Shown here: piece by piece, positions 1 through 20,779 of the stretch
Numbering within the stretch: position 1 is the first letter of the stretch
Layout: every line of letters begins with the position of its first letter
UHGV virus genome: UHGV-0208881
Reading direction: 5' to 3' (one strand)
Length of the DNA stretch: 22,343 nt
Source: a virus
The notes under the pieces: generated by a model
Databases searched by the model: none
Told to the model about the DNA's origin: nothing
What the model saw: only the letters and a program-made list of their open reading frames with translations
Made by a program: the position numbers and the translations under genes

Positions 1-1
1 T

Positions 2-37
2 AATAAGCAACCTCCTCTGTTAGGAGGTTGCTTATTA
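2..37 (-). terminator. Perfect 16-bp inverted repeat (stem TAATAAGCAACCTCCT, 5-nt loop) about 30 nt downstream of the tailspike stop; probable end-of-late-operon hairpin, with any U-tract lying beyond the window edge
   Basis: Read directly: bases 1-16 are the exact reverse complement of bases 22-37. No T-run follows on the plus strand; the minus-strand tail is outside the window. Confidence 0.4.
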
Positions 38-68
38 CAATTAAAGTCTAATAATGCGCTCTAGATAT

Positions 69-2486
69 TTACAATGTAATGTTTTGCGGCATGTCTGTAT
101 TCGCCTTATTTGCTGCTGGGTACTGGCATGTAGCAGTCGAATTTGTTGTCGAGTTATCCCCGAACCACAATTTGTTCTGTGACGCTATCCCTGACACTGC
201 AGATCCAGAGCACTGAATGACGTTAATTGCATCCTTAAACATGTTGTCAGCAATTCTGATATTCTCATACTGTGAAAGCCATGGAGTTGCTCCATCATCT
301 ATCAGCATTGTTGCATTTCCTGCCGTTCCAGGGGTAGATGATGATATATAGTTTCTAGAAAATTCTGCATAACTAGTTCCTGTTGCTTTTGATACCCCCG
401 TTTGTAATTGATCAAACAAAAAACCGCCTATCTGGATGTTGCCTCTTACAATAAGGGACCTTGGTGTATATCCTGCCGGATGGAATTTAACAACTCGAGT
501 GCCACAATTATAGAACTTGTTTTCTATAAAAGAAGCAAGGCAATTTGATGAGCACTTAATCCTGATTAAAGATGGTCCATTTGTGAACTCATTTCCTGTT
601 AATGAAATAAAATTCATTAAACCGACATTAGTGGATGTCATAACATCAATGAATGGCATTAAGGAAAAACCTGAGTAATAAGAAACTTTGTTATCTATTA
701 CTCTTAGCTCTGTTGCTGCCGATCCTGTTGCAAAGTTGATATTTGAAATATTGCAATTAGATATTTTTATTCTATTAAAATTTCCAACAGCGGCAAAACC
801 AACTGATGATGTTGAGTCAGATCTAAGTGTTGCACCATTGAATTCAATGCCACTGTTTGATGATATGTTTGATGAATCTTGAGCAAACATGAATGTTGTT
901 CCAGTAGTGGCAATTACCCCGCCAATTATCTTAAATTCACAATTGCTCATTTGCGCGTAATTGGTCATGAACAATGGTGCTATCATAGTGTTATTATTAA
1001 GTGATATAATAGCAGACTCAATAACAACACCAGGAGTCCCAATTAACATAATGCGATCATAAGCTCTGATGGTGTTACCAGAAGCAACAAGAGATCGCAT
1101 CCACCCTGTATCTATCCAAGGAGTTGTTGATGTACCAGGTACAATATGAATGCCAACACCTTGAGTTTGTATATTATTTCCAGAGACAGTAATCTGCCCC
1201 CAAGGAATATTTCCGTTTGATCCTGGCATATCAAGAACAATTGCGTTATCTAAAACGTCAATATTGTTACCTATAATTGATAAACGTGTAAATCCACAGC
1301 GACCTTTTATACATCCATTGCCTCTGGTATTAACTCTATTCTTCAGTGAGTTTCCAATTACAGCGATATCTTCAACCAAAGCTCCCTCGCCTGTTGCATC
1401 CCATGTGGCTCCAGCGGTGTACACAGCGTGATCATACCATCCATCCATTGAATTGCCTTGGATGCGAATATTGCGCATATTGCCACCGATGCATGATCCA
1501 GGTGAGTCATAGAACACGCAATCAAATATCAGAACGCCACCGAGTGAGTATCGGTGATCAGACCAAGTGACATTAGGCACTTGTGTTTTAACCCCATCAG
1601 GGGTGTTGTCATATGGTTCAGCGTTTGTCGGACATACATCTATATATCGTGTTTGGTCAGGAATAGATGTACCTGAGCCAGAAGCACCAACCTCCATGTT
1701 TCTGGCATTTCCATCAAATCTTAGGCCGTGAATAGAGATGCTTCCAGTTGCTCCTGACGCAACCAGCAAAATATTTGAACGGTCCTGGTTAGGGTCAATA
1801 TCTGTAGTTGAACCTGTTACAAAATGTGACCGCTGACTTCTGACGAGCGTTGCCCCTCCATCACCCCAAATAGATGTGCATCCTGTCCATACGTTTACCT
1901 TTGCATCAAACACATAGTCTCCAGGAGGGAAAAATACACCACAACCTTTTTCTGCTGCCTCATTAACAGCGAGTTGAACAGATGCGTTGACGTATTTAGT
2001 TCTATCTCTTGCAAATACTGATGCCATTTCATCATCAGTCATATATTTTGTAGCCAGAATACTTGGTGTCTTCTCTACATATTCATCAAGTGTTCCATAT
2101 CGGGTGTTTACAAGAGAACCATTGCCATTAGCTAATTCAAGGCGCAACTGGTCAGGATCGTATTTCAGTACATTAGGATAATAGAACTGCTGTGCCCCGT
2201 ACGCATCATAAACAGCCATAGAATGGCCTTGCACAGTTACGAACTTGGCAATCTGCCCGTTATATACAGGATATCCTGCAGCGTTAATGATGATTGGTTG
2301 CGAAACAGGAACGTGAGAACCATCTTCGTTCTCTATATAAACCTGAATCTGGTTTTCAGGATTTACCGGGTCAGTGTCAATTTTACCGATATAAATTTTT
2401 CCATTGGCTACGGCTTTAAAAGAACGCGCCATAGTGAAGAGTTGCGAAGGCATACTCACTACAACATTGGCTGTAATGTCTGTCAT
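69..2486 (-). CDS. Tailspike protein: P22 gp9-like head-binding N-terminal domain (about 115 aa) fused to a different right-handed beta-helix (pectate-lyase-like) receptor-binding/glycanase domain
   Basis: 805-aa ORF. N-terminus [11 protein letters not shown]...VLKYDPDQ matches remembered P22 tailspike head-binding domain; remainder is rich in GN/IxGN repeats typical of beta-helix tailspikes and does not resemble the P22 endorhamnosidase body. Last gene of the operon. SD GGAG upstream of ATG. Confidence 0.85.
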
Positions 2487-2650
2487 TTAATTTGCTCCAG
2501 ACGTAGCAATGCGGAACAAGATGCAACTTGCCCGGCATTGCACTAATGTCAGTTATGATCTGTTAATTATGAGATGAGTCTATGCAAAGAGATCTGTTGA
2601 ATATTGCGTTCTACATATTTGGTTTTTGCACGTTCCTGGTGTTTGCGAAA

Positions 2651-5044
2651 CTATTCTGACAACGCATCAGACTTAGCGCCTTGGGTCAGCGCGTTAATGG
2701 CCTTTTGCGCCTGCTGCATGGCTTTCTCAAACGCTGTTGATCCGCGTGGGGTGTTTGCCATTCGGAGCATTGCATTTCTGAATGGCTCGCTCTCATAGGC
2801 GCGAGTAAGAAGTCCGTAGCTTACTGCTGCGCCAGTTGTTGCAGGGTTCATTGCCGTCCCATACCCGATAATGAACGGGATGGTTTGCTGGCCTGTGGGT
2901 GTTGTTACAGCCGCTTTTGCAGCCTGCTGCGTGGATTGAAGGTAGTTTTTCAATCCTTTCAGATAAGCGGCTTCCTGACCTTTAAATGTGATTCCAGTCT
3001 GGTTTTGCAGGATGTTAAGCTGTCGAAGGAACTGGTCAGGGGATCCGCCAGATTTCTCCATCGCCTTTCCAATGATGCCATTGCGCATTTGCGCCCTGCC
3101 AACACGACCAACTGAGTTATACAGAGTCTTAATTTCCGATTTGTTCTTGCTGAATAGCATGTTGTTGACAACTTCCGGCGTCAGGTCGCCTTTCATGAGA
3201 ACATTCTTCAGCCTGGTATTCTTTAGTTTCTCCGCTTCGTCAGCGTAGACGGCATTGGCCTGCTGATATTTACGGAGAGTATCGTTGCCAAGATTCTGAC
3301 CAATGGCACCATTGATATCTTCGGTCATCGCCTTGTAAACTCGCTGAATGGCGGCATCGGAACGGTTTGGTAACACTGGTCGCTCCCCCTTCACGTCCAT
3401 TCTGAACTGGCTGCGCAGGTCGCTTAATTGCTTCAAATCCAGATTTACCGGACCATCAGGGCCAGCATTGCGAACAAGCTCATCACGATAGGACTGAAGT
3501 TTTGAAATAGTCTCGCTATCAGCAACCTTACCAAGCTTCTGCAGGTTAGATATTTCTGTATCAATCTGCTGAATTGCTCGCGCAGGCTGAATGTTTACTC
3601 CAGCCATAGCATTCTGAACCTGCTCCAGTCGATTACCGGCTGCACGACGAATTCCTGATGTTTTCGCTTTAAGGCTGTCAATAACAACCGCTGGGTCATA
3701 CTCACCGAATTTATCAGCAAATCTCTGCACCAACTGGCTTCTCGCTTCCTGTTGCGTTGCTCTCATTCCGCTTGTGCCAGCCAGAGGGATATTTTCTGCT
3801 GTAGTCTGCGCCATTTTTCCGACGCGGGAAGTTGGTTGTAACAGGTCTGTGGTGTGAAGAGGAACTCCTTCACGCTCTGCAAATCTGATAGCCTGCTGCG
3901 CTTCTGGCGAGATAGCGCCACGAACGCCACGATAAGCAGCACCTAATCCACGTCCGGCAGCGTTAATAGCACCGCCAGCAAGTACACCAACGCCTAAATC
4001 GGTGGCGAGTGCTTCCGCATCATCTTTCGCACTATTTGCAGCAAGTGATCCAACTGCGTTTCCTGCTAGAAGGCGAGTTGCCCCCTGAGCAATTCGACCA
4101 GCAAGTGTTGGTGCCTGTGTTGCCGCTCTCTCAACGCCAGCAGGAGTGAGGTAAGGCAATGCTTCGGCAAATACCCTTCCCTCTGTCGTTTGTGGAGTCA
4201 GCGCGCCTTGCTGAAGGCCAAAGTCCTGCTCTAATCCCTGCGTTGTTACTCGTGGTGCTGGTTGATATGTACCATCGCCAATGCCGAGTTTACCGCCAGC
4301 CCAAGCCGCCGCGCTTGTTACAGCATCAGTGAGTTCAGCAGGTATGTTCGCTACGTTGATTCCTGCCTGTAGTAAGCCGCGCCCGGTTTCAGCAAGTCCA
4401 TTACCAAGGTCAGACATTATTCCGCCTTGCTGCTGAACAGGTTTCGGTGCGACAGAACTTACGGGTTGAGGTGGCTGCTGACTGGCTGCCTGCTGCTCAA
4501 TCTGAGCAAATGGATTATTTGGGTCTGACTGCACGCCTGATGCCGATACTTGTTCGGATGACTGTGCTTCCAGTTGTGCAAACGGGTTGTTAGGGTCTTG
4601 CTGAGGATGTACCTTTGCAGAGGTGGCGCGCTGTTCGACTGTTGAGTCTGTCACCGGGTCACCCGCCCATTGAGCAAAGCGATCATCAACGTAACCGCGG
4701 CCTTCAGGTCCTGGCGTATATTCACCACGCTTTGCCTTCATAACGTTGCCGGGACCGTCGTGATAAGCCTGAAGAGCGTCACGCCAGTTACCAAACTGCT
4801 GGTACATCTTTGCCAGATAGCGCGCGCCAGCGTCAGCCTGATATTCGGGGTTTTGCATTTGCTCATCGGTATAACCCATATCACGCCATGTCCCAGGCAT
4901 GACCTGAGTCAATCCTACAGCCCCGGCGGAGCTTACTGCGGCAGGGTTGTAAGAAGACTCCTTGGCACCCAGTGCAGTCATCAACCCTTCTGGCACACCG
5001 TAACGTGCGCCAGCCTGCTCTAACAAATCACGGTAATTAGCCAT
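2651..5044 (-). CDS. Ejection (injection) protein, P22 gp16 position, with N-terminal soluble lytic transglycosylase (SLT) domain
   Basis: 797-aa ORF immediately after the gp20-like gene. N-terminal motif AKESSYNPAAVSSAGAVGLTQVMPGTW fits the SLT family catalytic region (ES...GAxGLxQxMP). Followed by a Q/P/A-rich linker with a tandem repeat and a long C-terminal domain. Position matches the third ejection protein of P22-like phages. Confidence 0.8.
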   Translation of the reverse strand: MANYRDLLEQAGARYGVPEGLMTALGAKESSYNPAAVSSAGAVGLTQVMPGTWRDMGYTDEQMQNPEYQADAGARYLAKMYQQFGNWRDALQAYHDGPGNVMKAKRGEYTPGPEGRGYVDDRFAQWAGDPVTDSTVEQRATSAKVHPQQDPNNPFAQLEAQSSEQVSASGVQSDPNNPFAQIEQQAASQQPPQPVSSVAPKPVQQQGGIMSDLGNGLAETGRGLLQAGINVANIPAELTDAVTSAAAWAGGKLGIGDGTYQPAPRVTTQGLEQDFGLQQGALTPQTTEGRVFAEALPYLTPAGVERAATQAPTLAGRIAQGATRLLAGNAVGSLAANSAKDDAEALATDLGVGVLAGGAINAAGRGLGAAYRGVRGAISPEAQQAIRFAEREGVPLHTTDLLQPTSRVGKMAQTTAENIPLAGTSGMRATQQEARSQLVQRFADKFGEYDPAVVIDSLKAKTSGIRRAAGNRLEQVQNAMAGVNIQPARAIQQIDTEISNLQKLGKVADSETISKLQSYRDELVRNAGPDGPVNLDLKQLSDLRSQFRMDVKGERPVLPNRSDAAIQRVYKAMTEDINGAIGQNLGNDTLRKYQQANAVYADEAEKLKNTRLKNVLMKGDLTPEVVNNMLFSKNKSEIKTLYNSVGRVGRAQMRNGIIGKAMEKSGGSPDQFLRQLNILQNQTGITFKGQEAAYLKGLKNYLQSTQQAAKAAVTTPTGQQTIPFIIGYGTAMNPATTGAAVSYGLLTRAYESEPFRNAMLRMANTPRGSTAFEKAMQQAQKAINALTQGAKSDALSE
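4491..4612 (-). repeat. In-frame tandem repeat (two copies of about 75 bp / 25 aa, DPNNPFAQ(L/I)E.Q...) in the linker of the SLT-ejection protein
   Basis: Protein shows QDPNNPFAQLEAQSSEQVSASGVQS followed by DPNNPFAQIEQQAASQQPPQPVSS; the matching DNA repeats are visible on the plus strand near 4491-4526 and 4566-4602. Confidence 0.5.
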
Positions 5045-9639: not shown

Positions 9640-10139
9640 TATTCGCTCCCGTTATCGCAAGGTTCCTTTCGGTGGAAGTAATTCCAACCGTTCCACTTCG
9701 CCAACTGATTACCGCTACCAATAGGCATACGGTTTGGATAACCGGACTTACATTTAGCGGCTTTTGCTCTGTCCATTGCAGACAGTTTGACGAGTCGCTC
9801 TTTCCCGTATCTGGCAGTGGTTATAAGTTTTGCAGACGCTTCCAGCGCATAATCTGGAGCAATGCGGCAGGCAAGGTTGAAAATGACGGCATTGATAGCG
9901 TTATTTGACAAACCGTGCTCATCGCCAGGATCCGGAGCGACATCTGCATCAGCGAAAATGTAGCCAACGTTGATACCAGGTGACGCATCACCTCCAAGCC
10001 ATTCAGCCATCATCATTTCAAGGTCGTTGACGCCGTCTTCCATGGACTGCGGTTCGACATCGGTTAACGTGGCATTTGATGCCACACCGAGCTTACGTAA
10101 TGCCGCAAGGACTAAATCACCCTTCGTTGTCAGGTTCAT
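9639..10139 (-). CDS. Tail accessory / head-completion protein, P22 gp4-like (start taken at internal Met, 166 aa)
   Basis: ORF track gives 9639..10208 (189 aa), but the Met at 10139 ([21 protein letters not shown]...) gives a 166-aa product matching remembered P22 gp4 length and N-terminus. The upstream ATG has no usable SD. Confidence 0.8.
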
Positions 10140-10347
10140 CTGCTGCCGCCTTAGGTTTTCGACCAGGCTTTTTACGCTGTTTTTCTTCTGGCTCTGGCTC
10201 TGCAACATCCTTCAAAAGGTCATCAGGATGTGAAAACCAGCCAGCATCCAGATATTCCTGAAGCTCTTCGGCTTTCACGATTTCAAAGTCGTAGCCAACG
10301 CCTTTCCACTTCTTCATGTCGCCATGACGAAAGATCATGTGTGTCAT
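10117..10347 (-). CDS. Small hypothetical protein between coat and gp4 (about 76 aa from the SD-supported Met), highly charged K/P/E-rich C-terminal tail
   Basis: ORF track 10117..10395 (92 aa) runs through the coat-gene terminator hairpin. The ATG at 10347 ([10 protein letters not shown]...) has GGAGA 5 nt upstream. C-terminus [27 protein letters not shown]. 3' end overlaps the gp4 start by 23 nt. Confidence 0.4.
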
Positions 10348-10360
10348 GCTTGTCTCCAGA

Positions 10361-10384
10361 TAAAAACGGGAGCCGAAGCTCCCT
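10361..10384 (-). terminator. Intrinsic terminator / attenuator just after the coat gene stop
   Basis: Minus strand reads GGGAGC-TTCG-GCTCCC (perfect 6-bp GC-rich stem, UUCG tetraloop) followed by G-TTTTT-A, a few nt after the coat TGA and just before the next SD. Confidence 0.6.
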
Positions 10385-10391
10385 CTGGTTA

Positions 10392-11687
10392 TCACGCAGT
10401 CTGGTTAGGCAGACCAACACCAATTGCCTCTGGCCGTACAGCACATGCTGAATACCACACAGCAATACGGCACTTACCAGACAGAGTATTGATATCACCC
10501 TGCGTTGCGAAGATGCCGTTAACACCAATACCAGGAATGCTGAAGGAAGACGTTTTCATGCCAGCAAACAGTTCATGGGTTACCGGAATCGGCTGAGACA
10601 GCAGGCGGATTGAGTCATCAGCCCAGAACACGTTAGCGGTGGTTGTTGCCACGTTCAGAACGTTTACCGGAGTGGAATCAGCAAGAGAGGTGTTTACGTT
10701 AGCGTAAGCCTTCTCTTCTTTTGTCAGTGAAGAGTCATCAAGCGCAATCGGTTTCGGCGTGATTTCGATGTGAGTACTATCGATCACACGGGTGATTGAG
10801 AAAGTCGCATCATCAGTCAGCACGTTCTTCGCCATCTGAGACAGGAATTTCACACCAGTGAAGCTGATTTTGTCGCCGCGCTTAAATCCGGTGGTGGAGG
10901 ATACGGTCACCGTTGCAACACGGTTGTCGACGTTCTCCTTGTTACCATCGGTATCAAGGGTGTATGCCTGCGGCTTAAACTTCTGCGCTCCAGACACAGT
11001 TACACCAGTAGCGGTTGACTTGGTAACTGCCGGAAGTTTCGGTGAGCGAAGAATTTCATCAAAGCCAGCAATCTGACGCTGAATAGTACCGTTGCGATAC
11101 GCTTCTTCAGGAACGCGCCCAAAGATGTCACCATCTACCAGGTTGCGGCCTGCTTTGCGGTAATCGTCAGGGTTCAGGAAGTAACTGATGCCCATGTCGC
11201 GGTTTAGCTCACGGGAGAACATCAGGCGCTCTGCATCAGACACAAAATCCCAGCCAGACAGGCCAGTAGATGGACCAATTGCGCGGGTATCGTGAACAAC
11301 AAGCGAGCCCATTTCAGTTGCCTGTTTGGCAATCGCTGACTCAATGTTATTCGCCAGTTTTTTGGCGGATGCCTGGATGCGGCGACGGTAAGAACGCTCA
11401 TCACGCAGGTCATCTGCACGAAGCTCGAAGAAATCGTTATCCGGATCGCCCATGTTGCATTTCACGGAGAGTTCCAGAATCCCGGTTGCGTTGCCAGTTA
11501 AATCCCAGCCAGTCTGGGTTGGCGCTTCCTGCTCAACAGGCATCCACACGGTGTTGCTTGAACGCTGCATGGATTCTGCCGGAGGGGTGTATTTTGTCAC
11601 TTTGGACGCCATTGGCGTCAGGTTCTGGACGGTTTCGATGATTTCATCCAGAGCATACGTGACCAGTTGACCTTCATTTAATGCCAT
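10392..11687 (-). CDS. Major capsid (coat) protein, P22 gp5-like
   Basis: 431-aa ORF (P22 coat is 430 aa). N-terminus [10 protein letters not shown]...DEIIETV and C-terminus [13 protein letters not shown] match remembered P22 coat. Start overlaps the scaffold stop. Confidence 0.9.
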
Positions 11688-12598
11688 TATCGAATTCCTT
11701 TATTCAGTTGCGCCTTAAGCTTGCGGTACGTCTCTACATCCCCTTTGTTTGCTGCCGCTTCCATCTGCTTTTCAATCGCAGAGATATTTGCAGCAACAGC
11801 GTGCCCCTGAATGGGTTCATCAGGTAACGGGGCTTCTGAAACAGGCTTGGCTCGAGGCTTGAGAGTTAAACGTTCTGACAGTCGAGTGAGTTCAATCAGC
11901 GCGGATTGCCCGTCCATCGCCAGCAACTGGCGTGTTTTCTCAGGATTAGCACCAAGGTGATACATGAGAGCAGCGGATTTCTCCGGGAAGAGGCGCATGA
12001 TGTCGGCACCGACTGCTGGCGGCACCAGTTGCATGAATGCATCCTCTTTCTCCTGATAGTCAGGGATATTGAGCTTTTCCGCTGCATCGTAGTGCTTACG
12101 GGCGGCCTCGACGTATTGCGCTGATTGCTGGGTGAACTCCTGAGTTTTGCGGCCCTGCTCGGCGACAGCCTGGCTTCGTGCGTCCATAGCCTTGATCTGC
12201 CATTCACTGTTTGCCTGCTGGAAGGCCGCCAGTGCGCGGCTCTGGTCATAGTCGTACTTAGCCAGTGCGTCTTCGGAAAGATAATCGTTAGGGTCTGGTT
12301 GTTTTGGTAACTCAGGACTCACCCGCAGGTGCTCCGGCAACTCTCCACGCTTAACCGCTTCCATCTGCTGCTCAAGCTCACGCTGGCGTTTGCGTTCGAT
12401 GCGGCGACGGGCAAATTCAGCATTAGTTGCCGGGTCTTGTTTTGGTTTCTCATCGTCTTTCAGGACAATCTCGAAGCCTTCTTCCTGACCTGCGTTGTCG
12501 TTGGCATTATCGACAACTAAGCCATCAGCAGATGCCGCTGCATGATTGCCGGGCAGGGTTAATTCTTCAGAAGCCTGAATGTCGGTGGTTTGTTCCAT
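11687..12598 (-). CDS. Scaffolding protein, P22 gp8-like
   Basis: 303-aa ORF (same length as P22 gp8). Matches remembered gp8 over the central [26 protein letters not shown] block and the C-terminal coat-binding region [11 protein letters not shown]. Confidence 0.9.
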
Positions 12599-12611
12599 GA
12601 TTAACTCTCTC

Positions 12612-14777
12612 TTATTGAGGTGTCTCGGCTACTCCGCCGGAGGGTATTTGAACTTGACGCATAAGATTCGCGAAATCCATGCGTTGTGAATGAGTCTGGT
12701 CTGCATCTTTAAGAAGCAGCTCAGCGTTAGCACGAGCATCTTTGCTGCGCTGTTGCTGGAATTGACCTACGAGCTTGAGGTACTCACGCAGTTCTGCCTG
12801 CTTGTCGAGGTCCATATTGTTGAAGATTTCCGCAATCTTCGCGGCGTTGAGTTGGTTTTGTGCTTCAACCTTGGCAGCTTCAACCTGAATCTGCGCCTGT
12901 TGGTTCTCTGCCTTGAGCAATTCAGCCTGACCTTGCAGAAGGATACCCTGCGCCTGAATTTGCTCTGCTGATGGCTGCTGCGGCTGCTGTTGCGCCTGCT
13001 GCACCATCTCCATCTCTTCAGGTGTTTCTGGTTTCTTCAGCCCCATCATCACCAGTTGCTTGTTCGCGTACTCTCGCATCATCTCGACGCCTTTACCGTC
13101 AAGCAGCGTGAAGTATTGCAGCATCAGCATCTGGAACTCTGGAGTACCTTGCGGAACCTTGGTGAGCAACTCCTGAATCTCTGCGCGGTTCTGTTCCTTC
13201 ATACTCTGGAAGGATGGCCCAACGTCCGTATAGCACTCATAGCGACCGCGAATGTCGTTGAGTGTGACCACATTGCCGGACTGGTAATCGACAACTTGCG
13301 CGTAGAGTTGAACGTCTTTCTCGCTTCCATCTTCGAGTGTCAGCGTTACATGACGAGGAACGTCATAAATATCGTTGACCATTGAGGCATAAATCTCGCC
13401 ATCACGTCGCATTGCGGTAGCCAGGTTATCCTGAAACACGTATGTCTCAAGGTCTGCCCGCATGTTCAGTTGATTGACGGTATCGAAAGCGACCTGACCA
13501 TTTGCCGCCTGCGCATCCACGCCAAGACTAGCCACCTCTTTCACTGCGTTGGTGGCAGCCTCAAGCATGTAAGCGTTGGCTTGCGGCACTTCAGGGTTTT
13601 CCATGTAGGAGATTGGACCAATCGGCAGGTCGTTACCGTTTTCATCGGTCCTGTTCTGCAGATAGTACGGATAGTCATCATTTCCACCGTACATGTATTC
13701 GTAGCCTTCGATTTGCTCAGGGAAGAAGGTCGGTTTCTTCTTCGGTGAACGAGCAACAATATCGGCGTTGAACGACATGATCATGTTACGAAGGCGTTGA
13801 CCGTCTTTCGTCAGCCTTACCACGCCCTCGTAGCACTCCTTGTCACCAGCGAATGACCATTCGCCGTACACAGGAACGATTGGGATATGCTCTCCAGCTA
13901 TCTTCTCGCGGTCTTTCAGTATCTGCGTGCAGGTGATGATCGACTTATACACACGCCGACGCTTGACCTTACGCTCTGCTACCTTAATGAATCCACGATT
14001 AGCCAGGTCGTCGATGACGTCTTTGATATCCTGCTGGTAATAGCTGACCGGCTCACCTGTCAGCGGGTCGCGGTAGATGAAGACCTTCTCTTTCTTCTCT
14101 TCGACCTCGTAATACTCAGCGACGTAGACGACATCATTCGATACCCACGGAAACAGCCATGTATCGTTCGGATTCTGGAAAGATGGCAAGGTGTCCGGAT
14201 CAATACCGTAATCCTCTGCGAACTCTTTCCAGCCATTGCGCGACAAGGCGTTAATCACCGTGCAGTGCTTAGCGTCGCTCTTATCCATCTGCTTGCTGTT
14301 GGCGTCCCATATGACGTGTGAGCAGGCTTCATGAATTGGCAGGCGTCTGATTACCTGATTGTTGCTTGTTGGGTCGTTGTCTTCGTACTGTGTGACCAGA
14401 CGCCATGCACCAACGCCGGACTCTATCTGCTCACGAACGCCAACGTTAACGGCAATCTTTGCCGTGTTATGGCGCATATCAGTACGATACATCCCCATCA
14501 ACACATCGGCTGCATCAGGATTAGCGCCGTCTTTGGGTCGGAAGAGAACGTCGATAGGGTTCCGGCGCATCTCTGCGACCAGTTTCCTGACCACCGGGCG
14601 AACAACATCGAATTGTCCGCGATATTGCAGGGTGGTGTAGTTTGATAGCCAGTCATCCCATTGCGACACTCGGCTAAAATACAGGTCATTTGTCGCCTCG
14701 GTTCTGGCTTCATCGCTCGCCATCCAGTCTGCGTCAAACTTACACAGAATGGAATTGAGTCTGTTTTCGTCGGCCAT
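12612..14777 (-). CDS. Portal protein, P22 gp1-like
   Basis: 721-aa ORF (P22 portal about 725 aa). Conserved blocks [40 protein letters not shown] and the long C-terminal coiled-coil barrel region. Start ATG is directly adjacent to the terminase stop. Confidence 0.9.
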
Positions 14778-20078: not shown

Positions 20079-20113
20079 GGGTCAAATTTACCCAACTTTA
20101 TTCAATAAGTCAA
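20060..20113 (-). promoter_or_regulatory. Late promoter pR' with Q-utilisation (qut) site
   Basis: Minus strand TTGACT (-35, 20113-20108), 17-bp spacer, TAAATT (-10, 20090-20085), then TGACCCAACGATGGG pause region; matches lambda pR'/qut layout, about 40 bp downstream of the Q stop. Confidence 0.8.
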
Positions 20114-20155: not shown

Positions 20156-20779
20156 CTAACGTGTGACCGCATTCAAAATGTTGTCTGCGATTGACTCTTC
20201 TTTGTGGCATTGCACCACCAGAGCGTCATACAGCGGCTTAACAGTGCGTGACCAAGTGGGTTGGGTAAGGTTTGGGATTAACATCGTCACAGCGCGATAT
20301 GCTGCGCTTGCTGGCATCCTTGAATAGCCGACGCCTTTGCATCTTCCGCACTCTTTCTCGACAACTCTCCCCAACTGCTCTGTTTTGGCTATATCAACCG
20401 CACGGCCTGTACCGTGGCAATCTCTGCATCTTGCGCCCGGCGTCGCGGCACTACGGCAATAATCCGCATAAGCGAATGTTGCGAGCACTTGCAGTACCTT
20501 TGCCTTAGTATTTCCTTCGAGCTTTGCCACACCACGGTATTTCCCCGATACCTTGTGTGCAAATTGCATCAGATAGTTGATAGCCTTTTGTTTGTCGTTC
20601 TGGCTGAGTTCATGCTTACCGCAGAATGCAGCCATTCCGAATCCGGCTTGTGATTGTGCCATCCCCATAGCAGCCATCACATCAGTACCGGAAAGAGAGT
20701 CAGAAGCCGTGGCCCGTGGTGAGTCGCTCATCATCGGGCTTTTTGGCGAATGAAATTTAGCTACGCTTTCGAGTCTCAT
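20156..20779 (-). CDS. Q: Late-gene antiterminator Q (lambda type)
   Basis: 207-aa ORF MRLESVAKFHSPKSPMMSDSPRATASD...CRDCHGTGRAVD...CGRCKGVGYS...; essentially identical to lambda Q as I remember it, including the zinc-binding Cys cluster. Confidence 0.95.
   Translation of the reverse strand: MRLESVAKFHSPKSPMMSDSPRATASDSLSGTDVMAAMGMAQSQAGFGMAAFCGKHELSQNDKQKAINYLMQFAHKVSGKYRGVAKLEGNTKAKVLQVLATFAYADYCRSAATPGARCRDCHGTGRAVDIAKTEQLGRVVEKECGRCKGVGYSRMPASAAYRAVTMLIPNLTQPTWSRTVKPLYDALVVQCHKEESIADNILNAVTR

Follow-up and report, generated by a model that had tools for sequence, protein, structure and literature searches.

The tailspike end of a P22-like late operon

The window analysed here is the whole of a 22,343-nt stretch of viral DNA (UHGV virus genome UHGV-0208881), in which the long open reading frames (ORFs) all lie on the minus strand and follow P22-like sizes and order, running from terminase, portal, scaffold, and coat through gp4, gp10, gp26, gp14, gp7, gp20, and gp16 to the tailspike. 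Holin, Rz, and a Q-type antiterminator (20156–20779; PF03589, E = 1.4e-56) are also encoded, and this combination of P22-like late genes with Q, holin, and Rz places the hairpin described below at the 3′ end of a lambdoid late operon, as the sequence-only reading had proposed. A sequence resembling a promoter, TTGACT-17-TAAATT, occurs at 20085–20113 (minus strand), 43 nt downstream of Q, and is on that ground a candidate for the late promoter P_R′; unlike in Sf6 and phage L, there are no tRNA genes between this candidate and holin. The gp16-type ejection protein (2651–5044, minus strand) is 797 aa long and carries an N-terminal SLT lytic-transglycosylase domain (PF01464, 2.9e-25), whereas its counterpart in Sf6 and in the other contigs that encode this exact tailspike is 665 aa long, with the SLT match absent from the record; these differences indicate that the same tailspike and its adjoining conversion module have been combined with at least three upstream virion-gene sets. 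The gap between gp16 and the tailspike gene is 164 nt (2487–2650) and, as in Sf6, is without the immI region (mnt, arc, ant, sieA).

The final gene of the late operon (69–2486, minus strand) encodes an 805-aa protein that we identify as the tailspike because its N-terminus is a P22-type head-binding domain (Head_binding, PF09008, E = 1.6e-67). The region that spans this N-terminal part and gp16 (2146–3000) is 91–92% identical to Sf6, HK620, and their relatives, and positions 1–2140, which include the low-G+C receptor-binding part, have no match in the phage collection. The stop codon occupies 69–71 and is followed, in the tailspike sense, by a 31-nt 3′ untranslated spacer (38–68, minus strand; delimited by junction sequences and alignment), in agreement with an earlier estimate of about 30 nt. 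This spacer holds a vestige of an older gene end: homologous tailspikes finish ..PQNITI*, and the protein here finishes ..PQNITL*, as an 8-nt difference in the alignment introduces a TAA ahead of the former ATC-TAG codons, which persist within the spacer (CTAGAT at 61–66; ATCTAG in the tailspike sense).

Next to the spacer, at positions 1–37 and legible on both strands, lies a hairpin recovered by repeat finding and by folding, with arms at 1–16 (TAATAAGCAACCTCCT) and 22–37 (AGGAGGTTGCTTATTA) that are 100% complementary and are separated by the 5-nt loop CTGTT (17–21). The perfect 16-bp hairpin and 37-nt palindrome claimed from the letters alone are thus real, the element being, strictly, a perfect inverted repeat about a nonpalindromic loop. 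It can be divided, from the sequence and a tabulation of its pairs, into a G+C-rich 10-bp core stem with loop (7–31; GCAACCTCCT/AGGAGGTTGC, 6 G-C pairs among the 10) and two shoulders, TAATAA on one side and TTATTA on the other; the core lies within the stem (∼5–14 bp) and loop (3–8 nt) lengths of intrinsic terminators. The hairpin is present in the minimum-free-energy RNA structure of both strands (−25.4 and −25.3 kcal/mol; z = −4.95 and −5.75), and none of 200 shuffled sequences was equally stable. Perfect 16-bp stems with loops of 3–10 nt are expected by chance 3.8e-5 times per window, simulation of 200 Markov-1 windows yielded perfect stems of 12 bp at most, and the second-best real hairpin of the window has 9 bp; a chance origin is excluded. 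The AGGAGG of the 3′ arm was considered as a ribosome-binding site and rejected, as the nearest ATG on the plus strand is 26 nt distant and that on the minus strand 30 nt, and both open only short ORFs antisense to real genes.

The flank beyond the window and the end of the prophage

The exact tailspike protein is recorded in 26 blocks of the assembly collection. Two contigs, L003 (246,927 nt; GCA_044268755.1) and L006, are 100% identical to the window across all 12,486 comparable bases and continue past position 1 as TTA-CTGCTGAG (in a fuller read, TTA-CTGCTGAGAAAC). What this continuation encodes is the end (..VSQQ*, with the stop codon) of a 416-aa GT4 glycosyltransferase (Pfam Glycos_transf_1, E = 3.9e-31) whose gene is convergent, so that the first base of the window directly adjoins the GT4 stop codon. 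The order in L003 is tailspike (10001–12418, plus strand), hairpin (12450–12486), and GT4 (12487–13737, minus strand), and the convergent arrangement of tailspike and GT4 recurs in all six contexts listed for the exact tailspike protein. A single element, set within a 68-nt intergenic segment from stop codon to stop codon, therefore lies between two convergent coding regions, as a bidirectional terminator does. The Watson–Crick palindrome is complete at 16 bp in L003, where a 17th pair could form only as a G·U wobble and only in tailspike-sense RNA, and thus the window edge does not truncate the hairpin.

Beyond GT4, a gene for a second, GNT-I-like glycosyltransferase (E = 2.6e-07) overlaps it by 4 nt and is succeeded by a divergent Wzx-type flippase gene (Polysacc_synt, E = 5.7e-26), an integrase gene (int; L003 16455–17612), and, adjoining int, the tRNA-Arg(CCT) gene argW (L003 17774–17848), past which the host genes yfdC-mlaA-yfdF-fadL are 100% identical to those of Escherichia coli. 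The prophage is integrated at argW, as in Sf6-type phages. Between the hairpin and this attachment site lie four genes (two glycosyltransferases, the wzx-like gene, and int) and a distance of ∼5.3 kb, which places the phage/host junction elsewhere than at the hairpin; nor does the hairpin bear the marks of an attachment site (a place beside the integrase, a core shared with a tRNA, host DNA beyond). The sequence-only reading had entertained a position near the phage/host junction, an alternative that int, argW, and the host genes, all ∼5.3 kb off, leave unsupported. It had also pointed to a T-tract, an att core, or host genes as what the flank might reveal: what stands there is the convergent GT4 stop. 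The window is hence cut at a gene boundary inside the prophage and not at the prophage end.

Beside the hairpin is a low-G+C cassette (L003 12487–16272 and window 69–2140; 33–41% against ∼48–55% around it) that comprises the receptor-binding part of the tailspike, GT4, the GNT-I-like transferase, and the divergent Wzx-type flippase, and that occupies the spot held by gtrABC in P22 and by oac in Sf6. A prophage with two transferases and a flippase looks unusual for the P22-like group. The cassette was not found in 5,426 complete E. coli genomes or in the phage collection; versions 78–81% identical adjoin thrS in Salmonella and Citrobacter. Searched for in IMG/VR, GT4 relatives comprise only the UViG that corresponds to the diverged context L001 and two irrelevant loci at 21–23% identity.

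Hairpins at the equivalent junction in related phages

A terminator is annotated at the same position in several well-described relatives. The P22 element (NC_002371 18214–18245) lies between gene 9 and the convergent gtrC in an interval of 58 nt (68 nt here) and, although it has no sequence similarity to the hairpin of the window, is built in the same manner, with an A-rich shoulder, a G+C core, and a U-rich shoulder (AATAAAAATGGGTG-TAAA-CACCCATTTTTATT). Its perfect extended stem is 14 bp long as compared with 16 bp here, and it too passes scoring in both directions, with uninterrupted and stronger U-tracts (UUUUUAUU; tail scores of −4.7 and −5.1 against −3.2 to −3.75 here); the neighbouring operon is gtrABC in P22, whereas here it consists of the GT4 and GNT-I-like transferases, accompanied by the divergent wzx. 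In Sf6, gene 14 and the convergent oac are 33 nt apart and flank a stem (AGGGGCC-ATAT-GGCCCCT-UUUAUUG) that is annotated as a "putative terminator for oac gene transcription" and has a U-tract in the tailspike direction only. In HK620, the 177 nt between gene 9 and the convergent hkcF contain two separate hairpins in place of the single one here, the first annotated as a "terminator of late transcription" and the other (TTAACCACCTC-GTGGT-GAGGTGGTTAA) adjoining the hkcF stop codon. The Sf6 and HK620 hairpins are unrelated in sequence to that of the window, and yet each of them, too, separates the tailspike from a convergent gene for O-antigen modification (oac, hkcF). A hairpin terminator in this place is a standing feature of the phage group, and annotations differ as to whether it serves the late operon or the conversion gene.

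Closer homologs of the junction itself are found in Salmonella and Citrobacter prophages, which adjoin thrS rather than argW and share the transferase–transferase–wzx module (GT4 at 78–81% identity) as well as a homologous tailspike 3′ end (..PQNITI*; tailspike relative at 87%). Between the two stop codons of these junctions (L019–L022, L024) there is also a hairpin, CCCCTCCT-loop-AGGAGGGG, with a stem of 8 bp in a spacer of 30 nt, as against 16 bp in 68 nt here, and the inner six pairs (CCTCCT/AGGAGG) are common to both forms. We compared the pairs of five sequences in a hand alignment tabulated by script, because MAFFT aligned the short hairpins out of structural register. Counted from the loop outward, pairs 1–6 are the same across the five junction types with two single exceptions (a U·G at pair 1 in one relative and a mismatch at pair 5 in another); pairs 7–8 are C-G, C-G in the relatives and A-T, A-T here, with both sides changed; and pairs 9–16 exist only in the E. 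coli form. The loops all differ (AACAG, GTAA, TTAC, GTGA), and such free variation of the loop with the pairing kept suits a folded strand rather than a sequence read by a protein. The Salmonella and Citrobacter hairpins are without the A/U shoulders and, by tail scoring, have almost no U-tract, so that the feature conserved at this junction is the hairpin and not a full canonical terminator.

More distant tailspike relatives (76–84% identity) have a co-directional SGNH-hydrolase gene downstream, after a different hairpin (GCCGCGCAGAA...TTTTGCGCGGC). At these loci (L025–L028), the SGNH/GDSL hydrolase gene replaces the transferases, and the hairpin that precedes it is itself conserved and has a 13-nt loop; in three of the proteins (P0123, P0125, P0126), receptor-binding domains at 76–84% identity are carried on other N-terminal domains, and P0124 (80% identical) has a TSP1/Gp66 domain (PF18668), with a 913-aa form lying beside holins and a GH19 endolysin.

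In E. coli, bidirectional terminators formed by hairpin elements that lie between convergent genes, such as the ynaJ-uspE element, are a described class (10.1101/2022.10.23.513370, citing Ju et al. 2019). The class resembles the arrangement here in having a single hairpin element between convergent stop codons, and a shared element of this sort would give the two transcripts complementary, overlapping 3′ ends. The class was defined by mapped RNA ends and is reportedly unlike canonical intrinsic terminators, whereas the element of the window is known from its sequence and looks canonical; moreover, only one of the two units here is active in a lysogen.

Anatomy of the putative terminator, rival readings, and proposed function

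We read the hairpin as a bidirectional intrinsic (Rho-independent) terminator that also serves as a 3′-end hairpin, a reading to which we assign a probability of roughly three in four on the strength of its anatomy, its convergent context, its positional equivalence to annotated terminators, and the partial conservation of its stem, from which we infer termination itself. The late-direction RNA would read ...UAA-(31 nt)-UAAUAA GCAACCUCCU AACAG AGGAGGUUGC UUAUUA UUACUG... and the transferase-direction RNA ...CAGCAG UAA UAAUAA GCAACCUCCU CUGUU AGGAGGUUGC UUAUUA CAAUUAAAG.... Both strands thus present an A-rich 5′ shoulder, a stem, and a U-rich 3′ shoulder; the 16-bp stem looks perfect because the A-rich and U-rich shoulders complement each other, with the consequence that either strand gives a stem and then a stretch of A/U only. 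The U-rich tail of the late transcript starts at 1–6 (minus strand; UUAUUA, then UUACUG outside the window), and that of the glycosyltransferase-operon transcript, UUAUUACAAUUAAAG, occupies 32–46 (plus strand; tail score −3.68), its opening 6 nt doubling as the outer 3′ arm of the stem. Intrinsic terminators carry a U-rich tract of some 7–9 nt immediately 3′ of the stem; here the tract after the core is UUAUUAUUA in the late direction (6 U of 9) and UUAUUACAA in the transferase direction (4 U of 9), and the sequence past the full 16-bp stem is not U-rich on either side (UUACUGCUG, CAAUUAAAG). As is usual for intrinsic terminators, the element stands close behind a stop codon: it is separated from that of the tailspike by 31 nt and from that of GT4 by 0 nt, with 6 nt between the latter and the core.

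Scored with our own TransTermHP-like script, the element passes the hairpin and tail cut-offs in both orientations, with tails of −3.2 to −3.75 against a tail cut-off of −2.5. These tails are weaker than those of P22 (−4.7/−5.1) or Sf6 (−4.9), and their U-tracts are interrupted. A separate terminator scan flags the plus strand only, by way of an out-of-register 5-bp stem that we do not count as evidence; the scan misses the true register because it extends stems maximally. The sequence-only suggestion of a terminator, possibly bidirectional, is strengthened by the convergent stop codon, by the shoulders, and by the annotated terminators of P22, Sf6, and HK620, and would therefore seem sound on sequence and analogy, whereas its attribution to the late operon needs the caveat that the window encodes a Q antiterminator.

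The weakness of the tails also bears on the most serious rival, in which the hairpin is an RNA-stability or pause element that releases no polymerase and acts by blocking 3′-to-5′ exonucleases or by pausing converging polymerases until they collide. The U-tracts are moderate here and nearly lacking in the hairpins of the relatives, where the stem is conserved and the tail is not; the late polymerase is Q-modified; and the ynaJ-uspE element, at which intrinsic termination was weak when transcription came from one side only, is proposed to be a pause site for head-on collision (10.1101/2022.10.23.513370). We nevertheless consider this explanation unlikely, as the E. coli stem has gained A/U shoulders on both sides in the manner of the canonical two-way terminator of P22, and the late operon is silent in lysogens, so that collisions cannot end the conversion-operon transcript there. 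The same conservation pattern is at odds with a function at the DNA level, such as attachment or recombination, the binding of a dimeric protein, or a module boundary for exchange of tailspike and conversion genes: pairing is kept in the relatives, including two both-sided changes, while the loops vary. In favour of a DNA site, the palindrome is perfect and sits at the border of the tailspike and a low-G+C accessory module, homologous tailspikes occur beside quite different downstream genes, and the spacer measures 68 nt here and 30 nt in the relatives between homologous coding ends, which shows that the tailspike/GT4 junction has been rearranged. Attachment, however, is served by int at argW, ∼5.3 kb away; the glycosyltransferase module follows the tailspike in the contexts listed, and the diverged copy L001 has no break in identity at the hairpin; and further copies are absent from 5,426 E. 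coli genomes as well as from the phage and metagenome collections. We regard a DNA-level site as very improbable.

A palindrome that ends exactly at position 1 might at first glance be a contig-end fold-back, and either such an assembly or window-edge artefact or a repetitive palindrome of the REP or MITE kind could be invoked. The window, however, simply begins after the stop codon of the neighbouring gene, and the hairpin is internal to long independent assemblies (246,927 nt, 592,234 nt, and others) with ordinary genes on either side. REP and MITE families are marked by many dispersed copies, and no second copy was found in the collections searched, namely complete E. coli genomes (5,426), phages, and metagenome contigs. 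The 74-nt junction (blastn, word size 11) matches nothing in the E. coli genomes and, among the phages, nothing but 25 nt of a Lactobacillus phage by chance; a scan of the metagenome contigs for the 12-bp arms, whatever the loop, found no match; and the 10-bp core with any loop has five matches in genome contigs, about the number expected by chance, in unrelated metagenome-assembled genomes (Solirubrobacterales, Agriterribacter, Clostridia, Vulcanococcus, and a gammaproteobacterium). Repeat and artefact are hence barely credible explanations. The Rfam 15 covariance models give no match at E ≤ 1 over positions 1–68, and the only match within positions 1–3000 is a subthreshold chance match at 1545–1571.

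Under the bidirectional terminator reading, two convergent units would share the hairpin, the late operon that ends in the tailspike and a two-gene glycosyltransferase operon that probably serves O-antigen conversion. RNA polymerase arriving from either direction would transcribe the core GCAACCUCCU-loop-AGGAGGUUGC, followed by a run made up entirely of A and U (UUAUUAUUA for the late transcript, UUAUUACAA for the transferase transcript); the hairpin would form behind a weak rU/rA hybrid and the transcript would be released, its left shoulder UAAUAA complementing the right one to complete the perfect 16-bp stem in the free RNA. On the plus strand, window positions 1–6 (TAATAA) supply two more in-frame stop codons after the GT4 TAA, which abuts the stem to give three in all (TAA-TAATAA), and a ribosome terminating so close to the stem may cover the 5′ arm, which would make termination less efficient for the transferase transcript.

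The two polymerases need not respond alike. A strong canonical intrinsic terminator lies within the late operon itself, after Rz and before the terminase genes (18238–18218, minus strand; GAGCCTCGC-GAT-GCGGGGCTT followed by TTTTATG, giving a 9-bp stem and UUUUUAU), so that expression of the virion genes would depend on Q antitermination and, given the Q antiterminator encoded in the window, the late polymerase is expected to be terminator-resistant. By what is established for Q in lambda, that polymerase should largely ignore a signal such as the hairpin. Terminators within the operon have been noted in phage L as well (PMC8022706), and lysogens of the P22-like prophage BTP1 express gtr, the conversion operon, highly (TPM >100), which is not so for the lytic genes (PMC7067206); by analogy, transcription does converge on the tailspike 3′ end in the lysogen. 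The hairpin is thus probably leaky for Q-antiterminated late transcripts, and its greater role is probably to end transcripts of the conversion operon in lysogens. It would be efficient mainly against ordinary RNA polymerase leaving that operon, and would thereby keep antisense transcription out of the silent late genes; the Q-modified polymerase would be halted only partly, and for late transcripts the hairpin would then act mainly as a barrier to 3′ exonucleases or as a pause or collision site.

The comparison with Salmonella and Citrobacter permits a further, quite doubtful proposal, namely that the E. coli hairpin arose from an ancestral 8-bp CCCCTCCT/AGGAGGGG stem without a U-tract, in which two C-G pairs were replaced by A-T through compensatory change and to which eight further pairs, six of them A-T, were added, the outcome being a canonical bidirectional terminator. 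If this were true, a pause or stability hairpin would have become an insulator of the silent late operon from a constitutively expressed conversion operon; a stronger version of the proposal would have the bare hairpins work only through polymerase collision or ribosome-coupled release.

The element is an ordinary candidate two-way terminator, new in sequence and known in kind. It matters little in itself, and the rare low-G+C cassette beside it deserves more attention. Its position shows where the late operon truly ends, its 37 nt offer a compact candidate two-way insulator for annotation and engineering, and it separates the tailspike from the O-antigen-modifying genes that travel with it.
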